A stretch of 64,000 bases of DNA from a virus: IMG/VR virus record IMGVR_UViG_3300032304_002264, positions 38,628 to 102,627 of that record, one strand, 5' to 3'. The notes beneath the pieces were generated by a model. It ran no database searches and was not told the DNA's origin. It was given only the letters and a program-made list of their open reading frames with translations. A program made the translations under genes and the position numbers. Each line of letters opens with the position of its first letter. Within the stretch, counting starts at the first letter, position 1. This document shows positions 37,580 through 56,185 of this stretch, piece by piece.

Positions 37580-38713
37580 ATGGCAAAATTAACAGCATCC
37601 CAAGACGTATCCGAATTCTTAGCTTCAGCCAACAAGGTTGATGCTAGGGGCGTTCTTGGTGCTGTAGAAACAGAAGATTTGATTAGTATGACATTAGTTA
37701 CCGCTGCTAATGATACTGTTAAAGGCTACGTCGGGAATATCGGCGCTCTGGCTTTTTACAGTCAATCGACTTTAAAAGGATTGTCGTTAGGATCGAGTGT
37801 CACTTCGATTGGAATGTATGCGTTCCGATACAATACTGGTTTTACAGGCTCTTTAACTATTCCCAATTCAGTGACTACAATAGGAAGCTATGCGTTCGAT
37901 GGCTGCACTGGTTTCACGGGCTCTTTAACTATTGGCAATTCTGTCACTACGATTGGAAGCAGCGCGTTTTATGATTGCAATTTTACAGGAGCTTTAACGA
38001 TTCCCAATTCCGTTACTTCGATTGGAAGCGATGCGTTTCAATATTGTTCTAGTTTCACAGGCTCTTTAACGATTGGCAATTCTGTCACTACGATTGGAAG
38101 CGGCGCGTTTTACGGTTGCACTGGTTTCACTGGTTCTTTAACTATTGGCGATGCAGTGGTTTCGATTGGAAACGGCGCGTTTTACGGTTGCAATTTTACA
38201 GGTTCTTTAACTATTCCTAATTCGGTCACTTCAATTGAGACTTATGCGTTTTACGATTGCAGTGATTTTACAGGTTCTTTGACTATTCCCAATTCCGTTA
38301 CTTCAATAGCAAGCTATGCGTTCATCAATTGCACTGGTTTTAATGGATCTTTAACTATTGGCGATGCAGTGGTTTCGATTGGAAACGGCGCGTTCCAAAG
38401 CTGCAATGGTTTCATTGGTTCTTTAACTATTGGCAATTCGGTCACTTCGATTGGGGACAATGCTTTCCAATTCTGCTCTGGTTTAACGGGAACTTTAACC
38501 ATTGGCAACTCAATTGGCAGTATTGGCGATTATGCATTTAAAGACTGTTCTTCTATAACAGTAGTTAATATTTTAGCTACCTCTGCACCAACTATTGGAC
38601 CACAAGCATTCTATAATATGACTGCCGTTAGCCCAGCAGAAATTCATGTCCCTGTCGGAGCTACTGGATACGACGCAAGTTATAATGGACTAACCGTCGT
38701 TTACGACCTCTAA
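37580..38713 (+). CDS. BspA-type (LRR_5) leucine-rich repeat protein 1
   Basis: about 11 repeats of LTIxNSVTSIGxxAFxxCxGFTGS. Confidence 0.9.
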   Translation: MAKLTASQDVSEFLASANKVDARGVLGAVETEDLISMTLVTAANDTVKGYVGNIGALAFYSQSTLKGLSLGSSVTSIGMYAFRYNTGFTGSLTIPNSVTTIGSYAFDGCTGFTGSLTIGNSVTTIGSSAFYDCNFTGALTIPNSVTSIGSDAFQYCSSFTGSLTIGNSVTTIGSGAFYGCTGFTGSLTIGDAVVSIGNGAFYGCNFTGSLTIPNSVTSIETYAFYDCSDFTGSLTIPNSVTSIASYAFINCTGFNGSLTIGDAVVSIGNGAFQSCNGFIGSLTIGNSVTSIGDNAFQFCSGLTGTLTIGNSIGSIGDYAFKDCSSITVVNILATSAPTIGPQAFYNMTAVSPAEIHVPVGATGYDASYNGLTVVYDL

Positions 38714-49486: not shown

Positions 49487-49569
49487 TGGATCTGGAAGTG
49501 AGATTCGAACTCACGGTGTTGTATCCCATATTACAAGTATGGTGCTTTCGACCACTAAGCTACTCCAGA
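49487..49569 (-). tRNA. tRNA-Thr(UGU), 11-nt variable region
   Basis: ccata-CTTGTAA-tatgg; TTCGAAT; CCA. Confidence 0.85.
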
Positions 49570-49694
49570 ATTAAAAATTAAACACTAGACCTTTGTTATG
49601 TTTCTTAGCCGTTCTAGAAACGGCAACTAGCGTATTATTTTATTTGCTTTGGCGGGTAATTAGTCCATTACTGGCAGATAAATAATAAAAAAAA

Positions 49695-49785
49695 TGGCGG
49701 CTAGCATTGGGATTGAACCAAAAGGCTGTTTAGGCCTCCCTCAGTTTAGCAAACTGTGACCGTCACCAAGACGACATTACTAGCC
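49695..49785 (-). tRNA. tRNA-Ser(GCU)
   Basis: cagt-TTGCTAA-actg; long variable arm; G73; CCA. Confidence 0.85.
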
Positions 49786-49792
49786 ATGAAAA

Positions 49793-49867
49793 TGGATGCC
49801 CAACAGAGAGTCCCACTCTGATTTCTCCCATACCAAGGGAGCGTGTCTAGTTTTACACTTTTGGGCA
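49793..49867 (-). tRNA. tRNA-Thr(GGU), atypical T-loop
   Basis: ctccc-TTGGTAT-gggag; T-loop TGGGACT; CCA. Confidence 0.8.
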
Positions 49868-49876
49868 ATTGAAAAT

Positions 49877-49959
49877 TGGTAGCCGTAGAGAGACTTGAAC
49901 TCTCAATCCCGAAGGCGACAAGGCTTAAACTTGTAGTGTATGCATTCCACCATACGGCC
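49877..49959 (-). tRNA. tRNA-Leu(UAA)
   Basis: acaag-TTTAAGC-cttgt; variable arm; CCA. Confidence 0.88.
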
Positions 49960-49960
49960 A

Positions 49961-50752
49961 TTAAAGATTATAAAATTTCATCCACTTACGAATTGAATTA
50001 TCTGATACTTGGTATTTTCTACCAATAGCGCAAAAGTTACCATCCAACTCTTCGAAATCTTTTTCTAGTTGTTGTTTTGGAGGTCTTCTTGAAAAGAAAG
50101 ACGATTGATAAATTCGGGCGCACGATTTACATCTATCAGCAACCTTAGAAATCTCTTTTTTACAATCTATACATAAATTTGGTGGGGTAAGAGAGACTCC
50201 AACTCTCATGCTTTTTAAAGCGTCTGGTTCTAAGCCAGATGTGTATAGCGTTCCACCATTACCCCCAGAATTACCCCAAGTTTCTGTCTGTTGATGACAG
50301 TTGGGGCAAATTATTCTTAAATTTTCTAAACGGTTATCGTTTGGTTTTCCGTTAATGTGGTCAACATGAAGTCTGATAGGATTATTTAACCATTCGGTTA
50401 TTCCGCAAATAGCACAAGTATTTTTATAACCCATTTTTAAAAGTTTGGGGAGCAATCGACTATGTTGACTGTAAGGAGAATTTTCTTTGAAAATTTCTTC
50501 ATTAGAAAAGGAATTTTTAGCTACGTTAGCGGCTACTTTAGAACAAGATTCCGCCGTTTTCCCTTTAGCCCAATTCTGACCTAGAAAATGATCGGTTGGG
50601 ATTCTATATTCTAAAATCCGAAATTGAATTAGCCTAAAGTTTCCTCCAGTCATTTTCAACCCTAGTTTTTTAATAACCTCTGAGAATGATAGACTAGATT
50701 CTACTAGGGGAGTCAAAGACTCTTTTGTATGTTTTCTTTTTCTTTGTTTCAC
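49961..50752 (-). CDS. HNH endonuclease with C-terminal Zn finger and HTH
   Basis: CAICG..HVDHING..NDNRLENLRIICPNCH; CIDC..RCKSC; AIGRKYQVSDNSIRKW; likely GTG start. Confidence 0.85.
   Translation of the reverse strand: MKQRKRKHTKESLTPLVESSLSFSEVIKKLGLKMTGGNFRLIQFRILEYRIPTDHFLGQNWAKGKTAESCSKVAANVAKNSFSNEEIFKENSPYSQHSRLLPKLLKMGYKNTCAICGITEWLNNPIRLHVDHINGKPNDNRLENLRIICPNCHQQTETWGNSGGNGGTLYTSGLEPDALKSMRVGVSLTPPNLCIDCKKEISKVADRCKSCARIYQSSFFSRRPPKQQLEKDFEELDGNFCAIGRKYQVSDNSIRKWMKFYNL
50180..50265 (-). tRNA. tRNA-Leu(UAG), nested inside the HNH ORF
   Basis: ggggtaa/ttacccc acceptor; tctgg-CTTAGAA-ccaga; variable arm; ACCA. Confidence 0.85.
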
Positions 50753-50806
50753 ATAAATCTTTACAGATAAAGTGGTAAAGGGGAGAATTATACTTTGAAA
50801 TTTTGT

Positions 50807-50882
50807 TGGTGCGAATAGAAAGATTTGAACTTTCACTGTATTGGCTCTCGACCAATTATCTCTGCCGTTGGATTATATTCGC
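50807..50882 (-). tRNA. tRNA with GAG (Leu) anticodon, short variable loop, C33
   Basis: attgg-TCGAGAG-ccaat; CCA. Confidence 0.75.
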
Positions 50883-50890
50883 ATAAAAAA

Positions 50891-50965
50891 TGGCGGTTCA
50901 TAGGGGGAACGATCCCCTTCCTCAAGATTGACAATCTAGTGATGCTACCTTTACACTAATGAACC
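50891..50965 (-). tRNA. tRNA-Asp(GUC)
   Basis: loop TTGTCAA; G73; CCA. Confidence 0.82.
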
Positions 50966-50974
50966 ATAAAATAA

Positions 50975-51184
50975 CAGACGGCATAATCCGAAGACCGCTA
51001 ACACTTCACAGTCCTTTCGAACTCCATGCTTCGCGCCGTTATCGCTGCTGTTCCAGCGGGGATTTACCCACAGTGTTTTGCGGGAGTAACTCCGCTTCAA
51101 TCGTAGGTTCTATTTCCTCCTACTAGCCATTTACTAGATGGCATGGTTCTTAGTATCCCGCGAATCCAATATAATCGTCTTCGG
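50975..51184 (-). ncRNA. unidentified multi-helix structured RNA
   Basis: CCGAAGAC/GTCTTCGG closing helix and at least 5 internal hairpins. Confidence 0.5.
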
Positions 51185-51323
51185 GAACTTCTACAATATT
51201 AAAAGCTACTACAAATTTTCCATCAATGATACCTTTAACTTTGAAGCTGTATTCTTGATTGGCCGATTCAAGGCAATCATTTAAAAGATCAGTGAGAATT
51301 CCTATTTTTTCGTCTTCGTCCAT
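51150..51323 (-). CDS. small acidic protein (57 aa) within the tRNA array
   Basis: MDEDEKIGILTDLLNDCLE...IGFAGY*. Confidence 0.45.
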   Translation of the reverse strand: MDEDEKIGILTDLLNDCLESANQEYSFKVKGIIDGKFVVAFNIVEVPEDDYIGFAGY

Positions 51324-51340
51324 ATTTGTTATGTTAAAAT

Positions 51341-51417
51341 TGTGCGCCAGAGTTGGATTCGAACCAACACCCTATTTCCTTCACGGAAGTCTTGCTACCA
51401 TTACACTATCCGAACGC
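51341..51417 (-). ncRNA. tRNA-like element with aberrant anticodon arm and no CCA
   Basis: canonical D and T arms; ttcc-gtgaa-ggaa arm; bulged acceptor. Confidence 0.55.
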
Positions 51418-51426
51418 ATTGAAAAT

Positions 51427-51501
51427 TGGTAGGGGATCACAGAATCGAACTGTATTCTTAGGAATGTAAAACCTCTGCATCACACTTAATGCTTATCCCC
51501 C
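51427..51501 (-). tRNA. tRNA-Val(UAC)
   Basis: loop TTTACAT with weak stem; CCA. Confidence 0.75.
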
Positions 51502-51514
51502 GTTTGAAAATTAA

Positions 51515-51713
51515 TTAGTAAATGCTAGTCGCTACTCTAGCTAGAAATGAAGTGTGTCTCATCAATGGGATATTACCATTTGCTTGCCATGCACGGCTCT
51601 TCTCTTCGGTCAGTTGTATATTATACTCACAAGTTTTTTCTCGGTGCATCTCCTTACATGTTTTCTGCAACAACGATATTCCTGCGTGTCTGCTTTCCAC
51701 GCCGATTTACTAA
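51515..51713 (-). ncRNA. about 200-nt tRNA-like RNA with a greatly enlarged anticodon-position domain
   Basis: 9-bp terminal helix; D-like arm GCGTG-GAAAGCAGA-CACGC; T-like arm GCTAG-AGTAGCGA-CTAGC. Confidence 0.6.
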
Positions 51714-51716
51714 AAC

Positions 51717-51790
51717 TGGACACACCTATGGGTAACTCTCCCATTTAGCTAGTTTTGCAGACTAGAGCCTCAATTTTCGGCCAAGGTGTG
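51717..51790 (-). tRNA. tRNA-Cys(GCA), atypical T-loop
   Basis: ctagt-CTGCAAA-actag; U73; CCA. Confidence 0.85.
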
Positions 51791-51797
51791 ATGAAAT

Positions 51798-51871
51798 TGG
51801 TGGAAATACAGAAACTCGAATTCTGACTAAAAGAGTGCAAATCTTTTGTGCTACCATTACACTATATCCCC
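51798..51871 (-). tRNA. tRNA-Ala(UGC)
   Basis: G3:U70; aaaga-TTTGCAC-tcttt; CCA. Confidence 0.9.
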
Positions 51872-51879
51872 ATTGAAAT

Positions 51880-51955
51880 TGGTAGTCCGTCCCCGTATTG
51901 ATCGGGGTATCTCCCGTTTATCGAACGGGTGCAGTTACCAGCTTGCTCACGGACT
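51880..51955 (-). tRNA. tRNA-Ile(GAU), C33
   Basis: cccgt-TCGATAA-acggg; CCA. Confidence 0.82.
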
Positions 51956-51965
51956 ATTTGAAAAT

Positions 51966-52088
51966 TGGAGCGGCGGCGGATCGTCACTTCCGCCTTGCTA
52001 GGGACTCCGAAATACCCCGTGATCTCCTTCTTCTAGGACATTCCGAGATTTAATGTCTTTTAATTCGGGTTTCTTTTGACTATGCCGC
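51966..52088 (-). ncRNA. expanded tRNA-like RNA with Gly-type acceptor and CCA
   Basis: GCGGC/GCCGC-TCCA acceptor; T-like arm; no canonical anticodon loop. Confidence 0.55.
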
Positions 52089-52097
52089 ATTGTAAAT

Positions 52098-52177
52098 TGG
52101 TGAGCCAGAGAGGAGTCAAACCTCCATGCATTCAATTATCCTTTCAACTCGTTCGTAGCGAGAGGGAATACTGACCC
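52098..52177 (-). tRNA. D-armless tRNA-Arg(ACG)-like RNA
   Basis: ctcg-CTACGAA-cgag; 8-nt D replacement; 22-nt variable region; CCA. Confidence 0.65.
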
Positions 52178-52190
52178 ATGTTATAAAATT

Positions 52191-52266
52191 TGGTGGGGGC
52201 GACGGGAATCCAACCCGCTATCAACCGTTTATGAGACGGTGGCATCTGGCATACTGCTCCACCCCG
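52191..52266 (-). tRNA. tRNA(CAU), Met or Ile2
   Basis: accgt-CTCATAA-acggt; CCA. Confidence 0.8.
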
Positions 52267-52280
52267 ATTAAATACTCAAA

Positions 52281-52355
52281 GTCCGCGAGGTCAGGGTTGA
52301 ACTGACATTATACTCTTTCACAAAGAGGACTTTTACCATTAAAGTTACCCACGGA
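52281..52355 (-). tRNA. tRNA-His(GUG), 8-bp acceptor, CCA not encoded
   Basis: ctct-TTGTGAA-agag. Confidence 0.75.
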
Positions 52356-52365
52356 TGAAAATAAA

Positions 52366-52518
52366 TCCCCACTACCGAGATTCACAGAGGTAAGATATCT
52401 CTAAGAGCGACCAAAGCCTTACTTACTTGTGTCGGATTACGAATACAGACATTGACGGAGCAACCGTGTATTCCTGTATCACGCTCATATTAGTTCTTTT
52501 GGTCTAATATGGCGGGGA
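52366..52518 (-). ncRNA. unidentified structured RNA
   Basis: TCCCCGC/GTGGGGA closing helix; CATATTAG/CTAATATG hairpin. Confidence 0.5.
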
Positions 52519-52522
52519 AAAT

Positions 52523-52606
52523 TGGTGCAGATGGCGAGATTTGAACTCGCGTGTGGTATTCCTCATTGGAAGTGAGGCGCAATCGACCAAGCTATGCGAC
52601 ATCTGC
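52523..52606 (-). tRNA. tRNA-Gly(UCC), 10-nt variable region
   Basis: cctca-CTTCCAA-tgagg; CCA. Confidence 0.85.
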
Positions 52607-52616
52607 TTTAAAATAG

Positions 52617-52728
52617 TTTGATTAGTTGGATTCCTTACTCATGGATAGAAGACTCACAAATGAAGTGGCAATGCATTGCGTTCATAGGTTCCAACGTGGA
52701 TGATACACGCCTTACGGTCTAATCAAAA
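52617..52728 (-). ncRNA. unidentified structured RNA
   Basis: TTTGATTAG/CTAATCAAA 9-bp closing helix with internal stems. Confidence 0.5.
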
Positions 52729-52729
52729 A

Positions 52730-52804
52730 TGGCCCCAACTAGAGGTATCGAGCCTCTCTTTCGAATTTTTCAGATTCGCGCTAATCCGTCTCAGCTAAGT
52801 TGGG
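52730..52804 (-). tRNA. tRNA-Phe(GAA)
   Basis: cgaat-CTGAAAA-attcg; CCA; 5' end overlaps the HNH stop region. Confidence 0.85.
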
Positions 52805-53365
52805 ATGATGAAATGTTCCATGACAATTAGGACAAAGATATTCTAAATTGTCTATTGTGTTATTTGTGGGGTCTTCGTCTTTATGGTGGATATGCAATAA
52901 AATTAAATTCCCCATCCAGTGTGACAAGCCACAACATTGACAACGATATTCTCTACCAGCACGATCTAAAGCTGCTTTCAACGCTGGCCTTCTTAATCTT
53001 TTCTTTTGTTCAACTGACTTAGCAAACAATTTGTTAGCTGTGGCTTGCCCTCCTAACGAACGGCTGTTTTCTTTGCCGTCTTTAAAAAAGACTCCCAATT
53101 GATTTAATCTTTTTTTATAGTGAAAAAATGAACCTCCAGATGTTTTTAATCCGAGATTTCTCAAACACTCATTCATATAAGAGCTTTTAGCTGCCGCTTC
53201 TAATAATTGTTGATCGGAAATTTTATGTTTGCATCTTCCAAAAGTTTTTAGCTTAAATTTCCGCAGCCAATAACGAGTTGTGCCAATAGGCATATTTAAG
53301 GCTTCTGCAATTTCTTTAATTGTTTTCCCTTCGGAAATATATTGTTGGAGTATTTTTTGTTCCAT
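52781..53365 (-). CDS. HTH fused to HNH endonuclease
   Basis: TIKEIAEAL HTH; CQCCG..HIHHKD..NN..DNLEYLCPNCH; GTGTAA 8 nt upstream. Confidence 0.85.
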   Translation of the reverse strand: MEQKILQQYISEGKTIKEIAEALNMPIGTTRYWLRKFKLKTFGRCKHKISDQQLLEAAAKSSYMNECLRNLGLKTSGGSFFHYKKRLNQLGVFFKDGKENSRSLGGQATANKLFAKSVEQKKRLRRPALKAALDRAGREYRCQCCGLSHWMGNLILLHIHHKDEDPTNNTIDNLEYLCPNCHGTFHHPNLAETD

Positions 53366-53446
53366 ACCCCTTTTTACACGAAAAGAGTAAAGCGGGGAAC
53401 AATATGCAAGCGCAATGTCTCCAGACCTGCCCACAAGCGTAAAAAT

Positions 53447-53523
53447 TGGTGACTCATGTAGGATTCAAACCTACAACCTAGACGGTAGAAACATCTTGCT
53501 CTATTCGATTGAGCTAATGAGCC
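53447..53523 (-). tRNA. tRNA-Arg(UCU)
   Basis: agatg-TTTCTAC-cgtct; CCA. Confidence 0.87.
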
Positions 53524-53531
53524 TTTGAAAA

Positions 53532-53606
53532 TGGCTGGCCATTTAGGATTCGAACCTAACTAAATCTCCTTAACAGGGAGGTGTCGCGCCTAGCGACCTA
53601 TGGCCA
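53532..53606 (-). tRNA. tRNA-Asn(GUU)
   Basis: ctcc-CTGTTAA-ggag; G73; CCA. Confidence 0.87.
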
Positions 53607-53614
53607 TTTGAAAA

Positions 53615-53689
53615 TGGTCAGGGTTTGGGGTAACGATCCCCATTCTACTCGTTAAAAGCAAGTTGCTTCACCATTAAAGCTTAACCCCG
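53615..53689 (-). tRNA. tRNA-Lys(UUU)
   Basis: acttg-CTTTTAA-cgagt; CCA. Confidence 0.85.
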
Positions 53690-53698
53690 TTTGAAAAT

Positions 53699-53769
53699 TG
53701 GATACCTTTGGGGATTCTAGCCCCTCTTCTACGCCCATGCGTAGTATGCTGTCATTACATCATCAGGTA
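53699..53769 (-). ncRNA. tRNA-like element with shortened anticodon loop
   Basis: D and T arms and CCA present; ctacgc-ATGG-gcgtag arm. Confidence 0.55.
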
Positions 53770-53772
53770 AGA

Positions 53773-53851
53773 TGGCCCACACAGGTCGGAATTGAACCGA
53801 CTATTTAACTGGATTTGGAGTTCAGTTGCAACCGCCACTTGCTGCTGCGGG
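53773..53851 (-). tRNA. tRNA-Trp(CCA), bulged acceptor
   Basis: loop CTCCAAA; CCA end. Confidence 0.75.
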
Positions 53852-53859
53852 ATGAAAAT

Positions 53860-53933
53860 TGGAAGCCCCGCCCAGAATCGAACTGGATTAAGTATGTTCA
53901 AAGCATACGGCCTTACCAATAGGCTACGGGGCA
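53860..53933 (-). tRNA. tRNA-Gln(UUG)
   Basis: gtatg-CTTTGAA-catac; CCA. Confidence 0.87.
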
Positions 53934-53940
53934 ATTAAAA

Positions 53941-54032
53941 TGGCGGAAGATAAAAGGATCGAACTCTCACCCGTGGATCACACGCATGGCACAGTTTTCG
54001 AGACTGCTTGACCTCCATTGGTCGCTACCTCC
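53941..54032 (-). tRNA. tRNA-Ser(CGA)
   Basis: gcagt-CTCGAAA-actgt; long variable arm; G73; CCA. Confidence 0.87.
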
Positions 54033-54046
54033 CATATAAAGAAAAA

Positions 54047-54240
54047 CAAATCAAAAGTGCGTTGTTACACCAAAGGGGTTACTATTTCTAGTCCTATGAA
54101 ACGTAATTCACAATCATCGCAGCACCTTTTGCAAGGGTGTATGTCTTCTTGGAATTATATACATACGAATTACCTCTTCTCTACGTCTAGTCCCATTCTT
54201 TAAAAGGTGGCTACTTCTAAGCCTACTTCCTTTTGATCTG
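54047..54240 (-). ncRNA. mimic of the 23S rRNA GTPase-associated centre (H43/H44, L11 site) with an insert of about 125 nt
   Basis: GGAAGUAGGCUUAGAAGUAGCCACCUUUUAAAGA ... GUGUAACAACGCACU inside an 11-bp closing helix. Confidence 0.8.
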
Positions 54241-54244
54241 AAAA

Positions 54245-54327
54245 TGGTGTGAGTCTGAGGTTTCGATCCTCGCCCCGAAGGAGAAGTTTTACAGACTTCT
54301 TGCTAGAGCCACTAGCTTTAGACTCAC
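54245..54327 (-). tRNA. tRNA-Tyr(GUA), apparent 8/4 acceptor/T-stem
   Basis: gaagt-CTGTAAA-acttc; GTGAGTCT/AGACTCAC acceptor; CCA. Confidence 0.8.
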
Positions 54328-54341
54328 ATAAAAAAGAAAGA

Positions 54342-54420
54342 GACGCGCTGTTTTACCTGACTAAACTACAATGCAGTATTATCTCCGCACCAGCGGACTT
54401 CGAACCCGCCTCTTCGCATC
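54342..54420 (-). ncRNA. circularly permuted tRNA mimic (YrlA-like), copy B
   Basis: order T arm, looped acceptor, D arm; closed by GATGCG/CGCGTC. Confidence 0.65.
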
Positions 54421-54430
54421 AAAATAAATA

Positions 54431-54498
54431 GGGGTATTCTGCCACTGAACTACCCAGAGATTGGAGCCTCTGAGACGGAATCGAACCGATGCCTCCCC
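54431..54498 (-). ncRNA. circularly permuted tRNA mimic (YrlA-like), copy A
   Basis: GGTTCGATTCC, CTCAGAG-loop-CTCTGGG, TAGTTCAGTGGCAGAA; closed by GGGG/CCCC. Confidence 0.7.
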
Positions 54499-54511
54499 AA
54501 CATTTGTAAAA

Positions 54512-54567
54512 TGGTCGCTCCCCGTCATCGACTCATAAAATCGACTTCGCTGGCCAGCAGGGGAGCG
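54512..54567 (-). ncRNA. 56-nt mini-RNA with 8-bp acceptor-like stem and ACCA end
   Basis: CGCTCCCC/GGGGAGCG-ACCA enclosing two small hairpins. Confidence 0.55.
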
Positions 54568-54593
54568 TTTGTTTTTTATGCTGGCATTAGAAA

Positions 54594-54670
54594 TGGTAGG
54601 AACGGAGAGGGTCGAACTCTCACTGATACAAGGAATGAGCTTGTGCAACACCAATATTGCTTGCGTTCCA
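54594..54670 (-). tRNA. tRNA(CAU) with U1:U72 mismatch and U37
   Basis: acaag-CTCATTC-cttgt; CCA. Confidence 0.75.
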
Positions 54671-54677
54671 ATTGAAA

Positions 54678-54702
54678 TGGTTGCGGACTAAAGACTCGAA
54701 TC
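54678..54702 (-). pseudogene. orphan tRNA 3' end (T-loop to CGCAACCA)
   Basis: GATTCGAGTCTTTAGTCCGCAACCA abutting the promoter of the endonuclease gene. Confidence 0.65.
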
Positions 54703-54717
54703 AGTGTAAAAGTATTT

Positions 54718-55677
54718 ATGCAATACAATAAAGACCAATACGAGACAAAAAAGCACCGCGAAATGATAGACTGCATCTGTGACGAATGTGGTTCTGAGTG
54801 TCAGAGACGAAAGAGAGATATTAGAATATCAATTGGCCGAAATCAGGAAAAGCTTTTTTGCTCAAAAGAATGTTCTGCCAAACACTCGCGATCCGAAGAG
54901 AGAAATAACCACTCAGGCGAATGCAAAAACTGTGGAAAAGAAGTAACCTACCCAAACTTGTTTTGTTCGTCTTCTTGTTCTGCTATCTATACCAACCAAT
55001 TTAAATTGAAAAGGGGCAAAATAGTGTCGTGTCATGGATGCGGAGAAGATTGCTATAAGGAACCAAATCAGCTACGAGATAATATTAGTGGGTTACACTT
55101 TTGCAGTCGTGATTGCAGCGACAAATTTAAGGTAAACAAAGCGGCTCGTCAAAATAGAGATATCACATGTTCTCAATGTTTATCTGATTTCCAAAGATAT
55201 TCGACCCAAAAGAGTAAGCACGGCAAAGAGTTTTGTTCTCGTTCTTGTAGAATGAAATATTTCAATATACATCACAAGATTAATGAAGGTTCGGGAGCCA
55301 GCGTTAGTTATCCAGAAGAATATTTGAATGACCGACTGGCCACTTCGTTTCAAGACTTAGAAATTTCCAGAAATAATAGAACCTTTCTTGAATGTGGTTA
55401 TGAAATGGATTTTTTCTTTCCTAATCTTAACTTCGCTATCGAAGTGAACGGCCCAATTCATTATATGCCTATTTTCGGAGAGACTCGTTTGGATAATGTC
55501 CAAGCTAAGGACTTAACAAAATATGCTGAAATGAATCACAAGGGCATCTCTTTTCTTATAATCGACGTAAGACAAAGTATGAGTAAAAAGAAAATGGCAA
55601 TGTATTTGGACGGACTTTTTGTTGATAAAATCCAACCTATTATAGAAAGCAAATTGCGCCGCCTAGATTCGAACTAG
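54718..55677 (+). CDS. multi-Zn-finger, Vsr/DUF559-like endonuclease, antisense in the array
   Basis: four CxxC...FCSxxC units; EMDFFF..FAIEVNGPIHY...KD. Confidence 0.8.
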   Translation: MQYNKDQYETKKHREMIDCICDECGSECQRRKRDIRISIGRNQEKLFCSKECSAKHSRSEERNNHSGECKNCGKEVTYPNLFCSSSCSAIYTNQFKLKRGKIVSCHGCGEDCYKEPNQLRDNISGLHFCSRDCSDKFKVNKAARQNRDITCSQCLSDFQRYSTQKSKHGKEFCSRSCRMKYFNIHHKINEGSGASVSYPEEYLNDRLATSFQDLEISRNNRTFLECGYEMDFFFPNLNFAIEVNGPIHYMPIFGETRLDNVQAKDLTKYAEMNHKGISFLIIDVRQSMSKKKMAMYLDGLFVDKIQPIIESKLRRLDSN

Positions 55678-55739
55678 GAACAGGATTTAACCTTTCTCCA
55701 ACTTATGAGGATGGCATGTTACCATTACACTACGGCACG
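55654..55739 (-). tRNA. initiator-like tRNA(CAU), C1:A72, long variable arm, no CCA
   Basis: ccatc-CTCATAA-gttgg; TTCGAAT; overlaps the endonuclease 3' end. Confidence 0.7.
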
Positions 55740-55752
55740 ATTTGAAAATGAA

Positions 55753-55907
55753 TCAGCTATACCCTTTGACCGAGGGGGCGTATTGTTGTCTCAAAGTTTG
55801 GTATATCCATCCCAAACCGCATGGCGGCTCCTTAAATAACTTCTTCCTCCTCTTGGATAGAATGAGGAAATAGATGGAGAAGTTACGACAACATTAACTC
55901 TAGCTGA
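55753..55907 (-). ncRNA. unidentified structured RNA
   Basis: nested helices TCAGCTA/TAGCTGA, TGTTGTC/GACAACA, TAACTTCT/AGAAGTTA. Confidence 0.55.
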
Positions 55908-55911
55908 AAAT

Positions 55912-56021
55912 TGATCCCCAACCATCCACCTTCTCAGTTGGTAGGAATTTGGCCGCTTGCGGCGACCTTACCTATTTGAACGCCTAATCGTCATTAGACT
56001 GGGTGGTTCTGACTGTTGGGA
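55912..56021 (-). ncRNA. unidentified structured RNA
   Basis: CCCAAC/GTTGGG closing helix; GGTCGC-cgcaa-GCGGCC hairpin. Confidence 0.5.
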
Positions 56022-56025
56022 AAAT

Positions 56026-56102
56026 TGGTTAGGCATGTGGAATTTGAATCCACAATCTCTACATCCCAAATGTAGCGCGATACCAAGTTACGCTAATGCC
56101 TA
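56026..56102 (-). tRNA. tRNA-Pro(UGG)
   Basis: ctaca-TTTGGGA-tgtag; CCA. Confidence 0.88.
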
Positions 56103-56110
56103 ATTGAAAT

Positions 56111-56185
56111 TGGTCATGCATACGGGGGACGATCCCGTAGTCTCTTGAGTGAAAGTCAAGCGTGTTACCATTACACTAATGCATG
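56111..56185 (-). tRNA. tRNA-Glu(UUC)
   Basis: cttga-CTTTCAC-tcaag; CCA. Confidence 0.87.

Follow-up and report, generated by a model that had tools for sequence, protein, structure and literature searches.

The stretch of DNA analysed here, called the window throughout, comprises 64,000 nucleotides (nt) of an uncultured freshwater phage (IMG/VR record IMGVR_UViG_3300032304_002264, positions 38,628 to 102,627). It contains 20 tRNA genes as called by ARAGORN, all on the minus strand from 49487 to 56185, and, squeezed between two leucine tRNA genes of this array, an open reading frame (ORF) for a putative HNH homing endonuclease. Within this ORF and on the same strand lies a further tRNA gene, tRNA-Leu(UAG), which is complete and which the reading frame of the nuclease crosses without a stop codon. 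The features of the locus are as follows.

49961..50752, minus strand: whole ORF of the putative HNH homing endonuclease, with a GTG start at 50752, 263 codons and a TAA stop at 49963-49961 (protein P0001)
50273..50752, minus strand: codons 1-160, an N-terminal helical region resembling a helix-turn-helix (HTH) and the HNH core (CxxC...DH...N...CPNCH), from Pfam, alignments and AlphaFold2
50180..50265, minus strand: tRNA-Leu(UAG), 86 nt including CCA, which is also codons 163-191 and the predicted interdomain linker, from ARAGORN, Rfam, covariation and AlphaFold2
49964..50179, minus strand: codons 192-263, a C-terminal zinc ribbon (CxxC...CxxC) and HTH (..VSDNSIRKW..), from homology and AlphaFold2
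50807..50882, minus strand: tRNA-Leu(GAG), with its 3' end 54 nt upstream of the nuclease start, from ARAGORN and Rfam
49877..49959, minus strand: tRNA-Leu(UAA), beginning 1 nt past the nuclease stop codon, from ARAGORN and sequence
49876..50817, no strand assigned: block missing in a related phage population, from the X4 contig

The nested tRNA gene was called by ARAGORN as tRNA-Leu(tag) on the minus strand at 50180-50265, and it scores 51.7 bits in Infernal against Rfam family RF00005, whose gathering score is 29. Its cloverleaf has a 7-bp acceptor stem, the long variable arm of a class-II tRNA, discriminator base A73, and an encoded CCA; A73 and the long variable arm are leucine identity marks. 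It is the sole UAG isoacceptor among the 20 ARAGORN tRNAs of the window. On the minus strand the frame is open without interruption across the tRNA (49961..50836), and the tRNA supplies 29 codons of the nuclease. A sequence-only reading of this DNA had described a complete same-strand tRNA-Leu(UAG) with CCA, read without stops inside an HNH ORF at 49961-50752. The ARAGORN call and the Rfam score bear out the tRNA, the peptide that it encodes is identical to the one given then, and gene callers and homologues both put the start at GTG 50752, giving 263 amino acids (aa).

The nuclease is matched over both of its halves by phrog_10822 (HNH endonuclease; E value, 1.4e-54; residues 31-287, profile positions 3-243 of 245). 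The sequence-only reading had placed the tRNA between an HNH domain and a plausible C-terminal zinc finger plus HTH. Residue numbers for PHROG and Pfam matches refer to a 291-aa reading of the ORF, and those given with P0001 refer to the 263-aa protein. The Pfam HNH family (PF01844) matches residues 141-183 with 21.5 bits, barely above its cut-off of 21.4, and scores 26.7 and 25.8 bits in the relatives at loci L004 and L339. The PADLOC model for homing endonucleases also matches the ORF (E value, 1.3e-12). The catalytic residues of the HNH core (D131, H132, N144, and the final H153 in P0001) and its two CxxC zinc pairs (C113 and C116, C149 and C152) show no or almost no variation in two alignments, one of 46 and one of 71 sequences. 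A Foldseek search against PDB returned no match at an E value of 0.001 or below, the best weak rows being HNH domains of McrA type and Cas9 type and a Fis-like HTH, and a profile search of PDB sequences found only a Cas9 HNH domain (E value, 8.5e-4). The ORF most likely encodes a free-standing HNH homing endonuclease, still putative, of a clade that resides at tRNA genes, chiefly those for tRNA-Leu(UAG).

An AlphaFold2 model built with 71 homologues has a mean predicted local distance difference test (pLDDT) score of 87, with both halves above 90 and a fall to about 51 to 54 over residues 161-190, which coincide with the tRNA-coded stretch. The model thus suggests that the tRNA-coded residues form a disordered linker between two confidently predicted domains. 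The C-terminal domain is homologous to that of long forms lacking a tRNA, for example gp460 of Agrobacterium phage Atu_ph07. In this protein and in P0007, P0009, and P0010, which likewise have both halves and no tRNA, the linkers are 11 to 24 residues long and mutually unrelated in sequence, so the linker appears to tolerate arbitrary sequence. Being predicted as disordered, and tolerant of both sequence and length, it could host a tRNA.

Just upstream of the nuclease start, a sigma-70-like TTCGCA-17-TATAAT lies at 50787-50815 on the minus strand and overlaps the 3' end of tRNA-Leu(GAG). In a promoter scan of the region near the start, sites resembling -35 and -10 elements were no commoner than in shuffled sequence.

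Conservation of the layout and constraint on both readings

The order of HNH domain, tRNA(UAG), and zinc ribbon plus HTH was found at three further loci known at the DNA level (L004, L012, and L163) and in three proteins known from protein sequence alone (P0003 to P0005). These six members are 35 to 50% identical to the window nuclease. The closest full-length proteins, P0003 to P0006, are 47 to 50% identical to it and have linkers that resemble a translated tRNA-Leu(UAG). The nested tRNAs score 51 bits against Rfam in L004 (which corresponds to P0006), 53.2 bits in L163, whose ORF is N-terminally shortened, and 42.1 bits in L012, which is 35% identical and has a short-arm tRNA without CCA. 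Behind the tRNA, the zinc-ribbon/HTH domain is intact in all three. In the tree, the window nuclease, P0003, P0004, P0005, and L004 form one group (Shimodaira-Hasegawa-like approximate likelihood ratio test support, 98), with the short form P0002 as sister of the window nuclease. L163 and L012 fall outside the clade of the window and L004 in a quick tree, and an approximately unbiased test does not reject a single clade (p 0.61).

Across the four DNA loci the nested tRNAs are 86, 85, 82, and 76 nt long, and their 5' ends fall in codon phase 1 in the window, 0 in L004, and 2 in L012; every ORF is open, and the anticodon is read as TTA-Gnn in these last three alike. Since lengths and phases differ, the frame must be restored by compensating insertions or deletions, and it always is. 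Random frames through tRNA-Leu(tag) genes are free of stops in 168 of 438 cases (38%); multiplied by the 1-in-3 chance of the right downstream phase, this gives about 0.13 per independent lineage, against which the frame is open and in phase in all seven members of the layout. On these sequence comparisons, the layout is not a product of chance. The same lengths bear on the idea that the tRNA is excised and the two halves of the message ligated, as with an intron, which would leave a mature mRNA without the tRNA. None of the four is a multiple of three, so excision would break the frame at every one of the loci, while the frame is intact with the tRNA left in; we consider this idea so improbable that we rejected it.

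Selection on the RNA is evident from the stems, with compensatory change in 19 of 23 base pairs when ten tRNAs are compared. Between the window and L004, both of the nested clade, compensatory swaps occur in the acceptor, anticodon, and T stems. These two tRNAs also have in common a rare T-loop G56 (about 5 of about 900 distinct tRNAs of the surveyed loci), which pairs with a D-loop C19. A pattern search found G56 in 15 of the 20 tRNAs that have C19, which belong to a lineage of phage tRNA-Leu genes, and thereby showed the 19:56 swap to be real covariation within that lineage. The same C19:G56 swap of the G19:C56 tertiary pair is found in tRNA-Met(cat) of the window (52191-52266) and in loci L255 to L317; a T-loop of TTGGAxT or TTGAAxT together with a D-loop containing ..TGC.. 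marks this lineage of phage tRNAs, and U56 occurs with A19 in several others. We also considered whether the odd T-loop might confer self-immunity against the nuclease, an idea that was rejected on finding C19:G56 to be common in free-standing phage tRNA-Leu genes.

These features bear directly on whether the stretch is a relic, that is, a nonfunctional tRNA which survives merely as a tRNA-derived protein linker. The non-canonical T-loop (TTGGAGT, with G56) would fit a relic, as would the nested tRNA of L012, with its short arm, its missing CCA, and its score of just 42 bits. In the window tRNA, in contrast, A73, the long variable arm, and the CCA are all present, the gene is the only one with this anticodon in the array, and G56 is matched by C19 in a combination that is common outside nuclease genes. 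Rfam scores lie far above the threshold, and compensatory change maintains every stem, including between the window and L004. Moreover, the linker peptides are only 24 to 38% identical and are read in shifted phases, which points to constraint on the RNA and not on the peptide. That the tRNA is dead seems very unlikely to us.

On the protein side, identities within the clade are 50 to 61% for the N-terminal half, 37 to 49% for the C-terminal half, and 24 to 38% for the linker. The C-terminal domain retains its four zinc cysteines, along with the HTH motif, in the members of the layout, and its zinc ribbon begins 2 to 8 residues past the tRNA in all four DNA loci. In the interval from tRNA to zinc ribbon, all four of these loci lack an in-frame ATG, GTG, or TTG, and L004 and L163 lack one across the whole C-terminal segment. 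The C-terminal domain could therefore be produced only by translation through the tRNA. The sequence-only reading had proposed a dual-coding segment and had named a separate start for the C-terminal domain as the observation that would speak against it. No such start was found in the four DNA loci, and the proposal is upheld by the conserved layout, by the frame kept despite insertions and deletions in the tRNA, by the compensated tRNA stems, and by the conserved C-terminal domain. The same DNA is under constraint as a tRNA and, at once, as the open, in-phase linker of a putative two-domain nuclease.

Two alternatives turn on this C-terminal segment. In the first, read-through is accidental: the nuclease is decaying or consists of the HNH half only, and the open frame into the C-terminal segment is coincidental and without function. 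Stop-free frames through tRNA-Leu(tag) are indeed frequent, incidental crossings exist elsewhere in the family (L007 and L011, which stop 6 codons on, and L113, which continues into 48 unrelated codons), many ORFs of Streptosporangiaceae run via a tRNA into a ParD-like gene with its own Met codon, and P0002, a near relative, is a short form. In the window and its fellow members, however, what follows the tRNA is the zinc-ribbon/HTH domain that belongs to the family itself, at the level of identity given above and with its cysteines and HTH motif kept; it is without a start of its own, and it is in frame in seven of seven members despite indels in the tRNA. A search of the short-form loci for out-of-frame C-terminal remnants after the tRNA found none. 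We regard coincidence as quite unlikely.

In the second alternative, processing of the tRNA is obligatory, and the HNH and DNA-binding halves are separate polypeptides that cooperate. Punctuation of polycistronic transcripts by tRNAs is established biology, and many HNH-only short forms evidently function without the C-terminal domain. A two-piece enzyme would nevertheless have to be made from a 3' fragment in which, at each of the four loci, the zinc ribbon is preceded by no in-frame ATG, GTG, or TTG (L004 and L163 having none whatever), and from a 5' fragment without a stop codon. Nor does separate translation give any reason for the frame to be kept. This arrangement, too, we hold to be unlikely.

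The wider family at tRNA genes and the mobility of the block

Homologues of the nuclease were surveyed at 174 phage or metagenome loci, of which 166 are unique and 163 have a complete ORF. The metagenome contigs scanned included neither the one that encodes P0002 nor that of the window itself. A tRNA lies at or inside the end of the ORF at 86 of these 163 loci, distributed as follows.

43 of 163 loci: the stop codon of the ORF lies within a same-strand tRNA
26 of 163 loci: a tRNA starts no more than 30 nt past the ORF stop
11 of 163 loci: an opposite-strand tRNA adjoins the stop
6 of 163 loci: a whole tRNA lies inside the ORF

Leucine tRNAs account for 55 of the 86 tRNA-linked loci, and tRNA-Leu(tag) alone for 38. 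Stop codons are taken from conserved parts of the tRNA: at 12 loci the ORF ends at tRNA nt 8-10, where the conserved U8-A9-G10 is read as TAG, and at about 7 it ends near the TAG or TAA anticodon of tRNA-Leu(UAG) or tRNA-Leu(UAA). Among bacterial loci, mostly of Actinomycetes, a tRNA is found at the ORF end in 72 of 79 cases and is tRNA-Leu(tag) in 69 of the 72. The case in the window is one extreme of a family habit, not noted in the sequence-only reading, by which ORFs of this HNH clade terminate within tRNA genes or directly beside them.

Several individual loci illustrate the range of arrangements. The bacterial genera include Streptosporangium, Micromonospora, Nonomuraea, and Actinoplanes (loci L324 to L403, for example L339:1492-2298), and at 17 loci of Streptosporangiaceae the ORF continues beyond the tRNA into sequence with a Met codon of its own and a weak match to ParD antitoxins (E value, 2.8e-4). 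At L007:102-737 and L011:2450-3085 an HNH ORF crosses a whole tRNA-Leu(gag), and at L113:2462-3193 another crosses tRNA-Leu(tag) into codons unrelated to the C-terminal domain of the family. In the T5-like Salmonella phage vB_SalS-SIA3lw, an unannotated HNH ORF of 153 aa (L003:1474-1935) has its stop in tRNA-Leu(tag) (1929-2013); the record annotates the tRNA and not the overlapping ORF. In Atu_ph07, the HNH gene and a tRNA-Leu(tag) are arranged tail to tail.

The window itself holds a second, distant HNH ORF (52781-53434, minus strand, 217 aa) with its stop inside tRNA-Phe(gaa) (52730-52804), such that the 24 nt that end the ORF also begin the tRNA. Opposite the tRNA array, a plus-strand ORF of 319 aa (54718-55677) contains many Cys-rich repeats, and by eye its C-terminal part resembles an endonuclease; possibly this ORF encodes a further mobile nuclease of the array.

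The nuclease gene and its neighbours are missing as a block from a related phage population, represented among contigs of metagenomes that belong to the same study as the likely source. In a 7,907-nt contig of run X4 (depth, 33.5), position 49875 of the window is joined to position 50818 with 13 other letters between them; the nuclease gene and the tRNA nested in it are absent, as are tRNA-Leu(UAA), the spacer, and the final 11 nt of tRNA-Leu(GAG). Contigs of runs X2 and X6 lose their likeness to the window at 50806 and 49874, both of which are tRNA 3' ends, and related contigs regain it at 49874/49875. At L174, the nearest relative by a neighbouring gene (90% identity), the order of the tRNAs is different and the HNH gene is absent. 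Within the region of window 50889-51142, the X4 population also has about 370 nt of other sequence in place of tRNA-Asp (50891-50965), and it skips 51143-51429, so the tRNA array is mosaic at many points. With the locus as query, a megablast search of public phage records aligned no more than 66 nt, in a tRNA, and found no near-identical phage, and an exact search of IMG/VR for the block-less junction gave 0 matches.

The sporadic distribution is what a homing element with flanking tRNA genes in tow should show, although site-specific cleavage and biased inheritance are putative here. That the nuclease is retained through its tie to a useful tRNA, as the sequence-only reading had also proposed, is plausible and is consistent with the block being present or absent as a unit.

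Proposed mechanism and its significance

We propose that this homing endonuclease clade resides at tRNA genes and that in the window and its fellow members a tRNA serves as the interdomain linker, with both readings under selection; expression and activity of the nuclease are predicted. We put the probability of this proposal at roughly 0.7. Some observations weigh against it. The closest protein relative, P0002, has only 164 aa and ends just past the HNH core while its N-terminal half is 78% identical to that of the window, so the C-terminal half is dispensable in at least one near lineage, one that is known from protein only. A 442-nt contig of run X3 over the C-terminal half has 3 gaps, and this near relative could be frameshifted. 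Finally, the block-less X4 contig is diverged and rearranged, such that it shows presence or absence only and no clean insertion site can be read from it.

Under the proposal, the tRNA gene would stand in for the linker, variable and tolerant of sequence, that joins the nuclease half to the zinc-ribbon/HTH half, acting at the RNA level as a class-II leucine tRNA and at the protein level as a 29-codon disordered tether. Because the whole array is on one strand, a single precursor transcript could serve both products. Ribosomes that load ahead of processing would translate across the tRNA and produce the complete enzyme. RNase P cleaves at the mature 5' end of tRNAs, and here its action and 3' trimming would free the tRNA, leaving a 5' piece without a stop codon and a 3' piece without a start. 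Stop-less mRNAs are rescued by transfer-messenger RNA (tmRNA) and their products degraded, a fate that would be expected for the 5' piece as well. Maturation of the tRNA and translation of the nuclease would thus compete for one transcript, and since only the unprocessed precursor would give full-length nuclease, the efficiency with which the tRNA matures would set an upper limit on output of the enzyme. The sequence-only reading had likewise suggested that RNase P and 3' trimming would cut the nuclease mRNA and limit its expression, a view that accords with established tRNA processing. The argument would hold equally for the 43 relatives with a stop codon inside a tRNA. The nuclease and its tRNA or tRNAs would be gained and lost jointly, the selfish gene travelling with useful cargo.

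A broader view is possible, which we offer tentatively and to which we give less than even odds. The HNH clade may represent a mobile cassette of nuclease plus tRNA-Leu(UAG), found in phage arrays and bacterial chromosomes, in which the tRNA would be at once cargo, neighbour of the target site, and an expression switch governed by RNase P, and such cassettes may help to build and exchange the tRNA arrays of phages.

If both products are made, the locus would be a clear example from prokaryotes of a single sequence selected at the same time for a structured RNA and for a portion of a protein, with tRNA maturation and translation as mutually exclusive fates of a single transcript. It would also offer a simple mechanism of control for a potentially toxic selfish nuclease. 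Homing endonucleases crowd the tRNA clusters of phages, and these clusters differ greatly between related phages; a link between the two suggests that nuclease-tRNA units move jointly. The family's welding to tRNA-Leu(UAG), which extends to the chromosomes of Actinomycetes, hints at a specificity that has gone unrecognised. The family further exposes systematic gaps in annotation, since ORFs that overlap tRNAs often go uncalled, as in phage SIA3lw.

Comparison with known systems

In its predicted two-part construction the window nuclease resembles I-HmuI and I-TevI, modular homing endonucleases in which a nuclease domain is connected by a flexible linker to a C-terminal HTH. The likeness lies in the succession of a catalytic module, a sequence-tolerant linker, and a small DNA-binding module; the Foldseek search gave no match to them at the level of fold, and membership of the window nuclease in either group is not claimed. 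With such a modular build, the linker could absorb foreign sequence.

Free-standing homing endonucleases in phage tRNA clusters are represented by SegB of T4, a GIY-YIG enzyme (PMC2330249), and by the HNH enzymes F-TflI, F-TflII, and F-TflIV of the T5 tRNA cluster, which are cited in that paper. The locus described here has in common with them a selfish nuclease gene that is wedged between tRNA genes and sporadic among related phages, and an expected co-conversion of the flanking tRNA genes (PMC2330249). T5-like phages provide a further point of contact, since SIA3lw holds a member of the HNH clade of the window nuclease. SegB differs in having another nuclease fold. In addition, the genes of SegB and the F-Tfl enzymes lie between tRNAs and not around one, and none is described with a tRNA as interdomain linker.

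A tRNA gene lying within a protein-coding gene is known from Alphaproteobacteria, where selC, the gene for tRNA-Sec, lies in the selB ORF (Mukai 2021, PMC8124441); that study terms it the first nested tRNA within a bacterial ORF. In our search of the literature, selB/selC was the sole nested tRNA in a bacterial ORF, and no phage or homing-endonuclease case was found. The similarities are considerable. In both systems an entire same-strand tRNA gene within a protein ORF is translated, the arrangement is kept across relatives while partial overlaps or remnants occur in other lineages, and the proposed logic is that processing yields a stop-less mRNA, such that tRNA and protein are alternative outputs (PMC8124441). 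In contrast to selC, which codes for a C-terminal extension of a complete protein, the tRNA described here sits between two functional domains, so the nuclease would be incomplete unless the tRNA is read through. Furthermore, SelB is a cellular factor that uses the very tRNA encoded within its gene, whereas the ORF of the window encodes a putative selfish nuclease and belongs to the tRNA array of a phage. That homing endonucleases occur in tRNA clusters of phages was already well known, and the closest published parallel to the nested arrangement is selC in selB.

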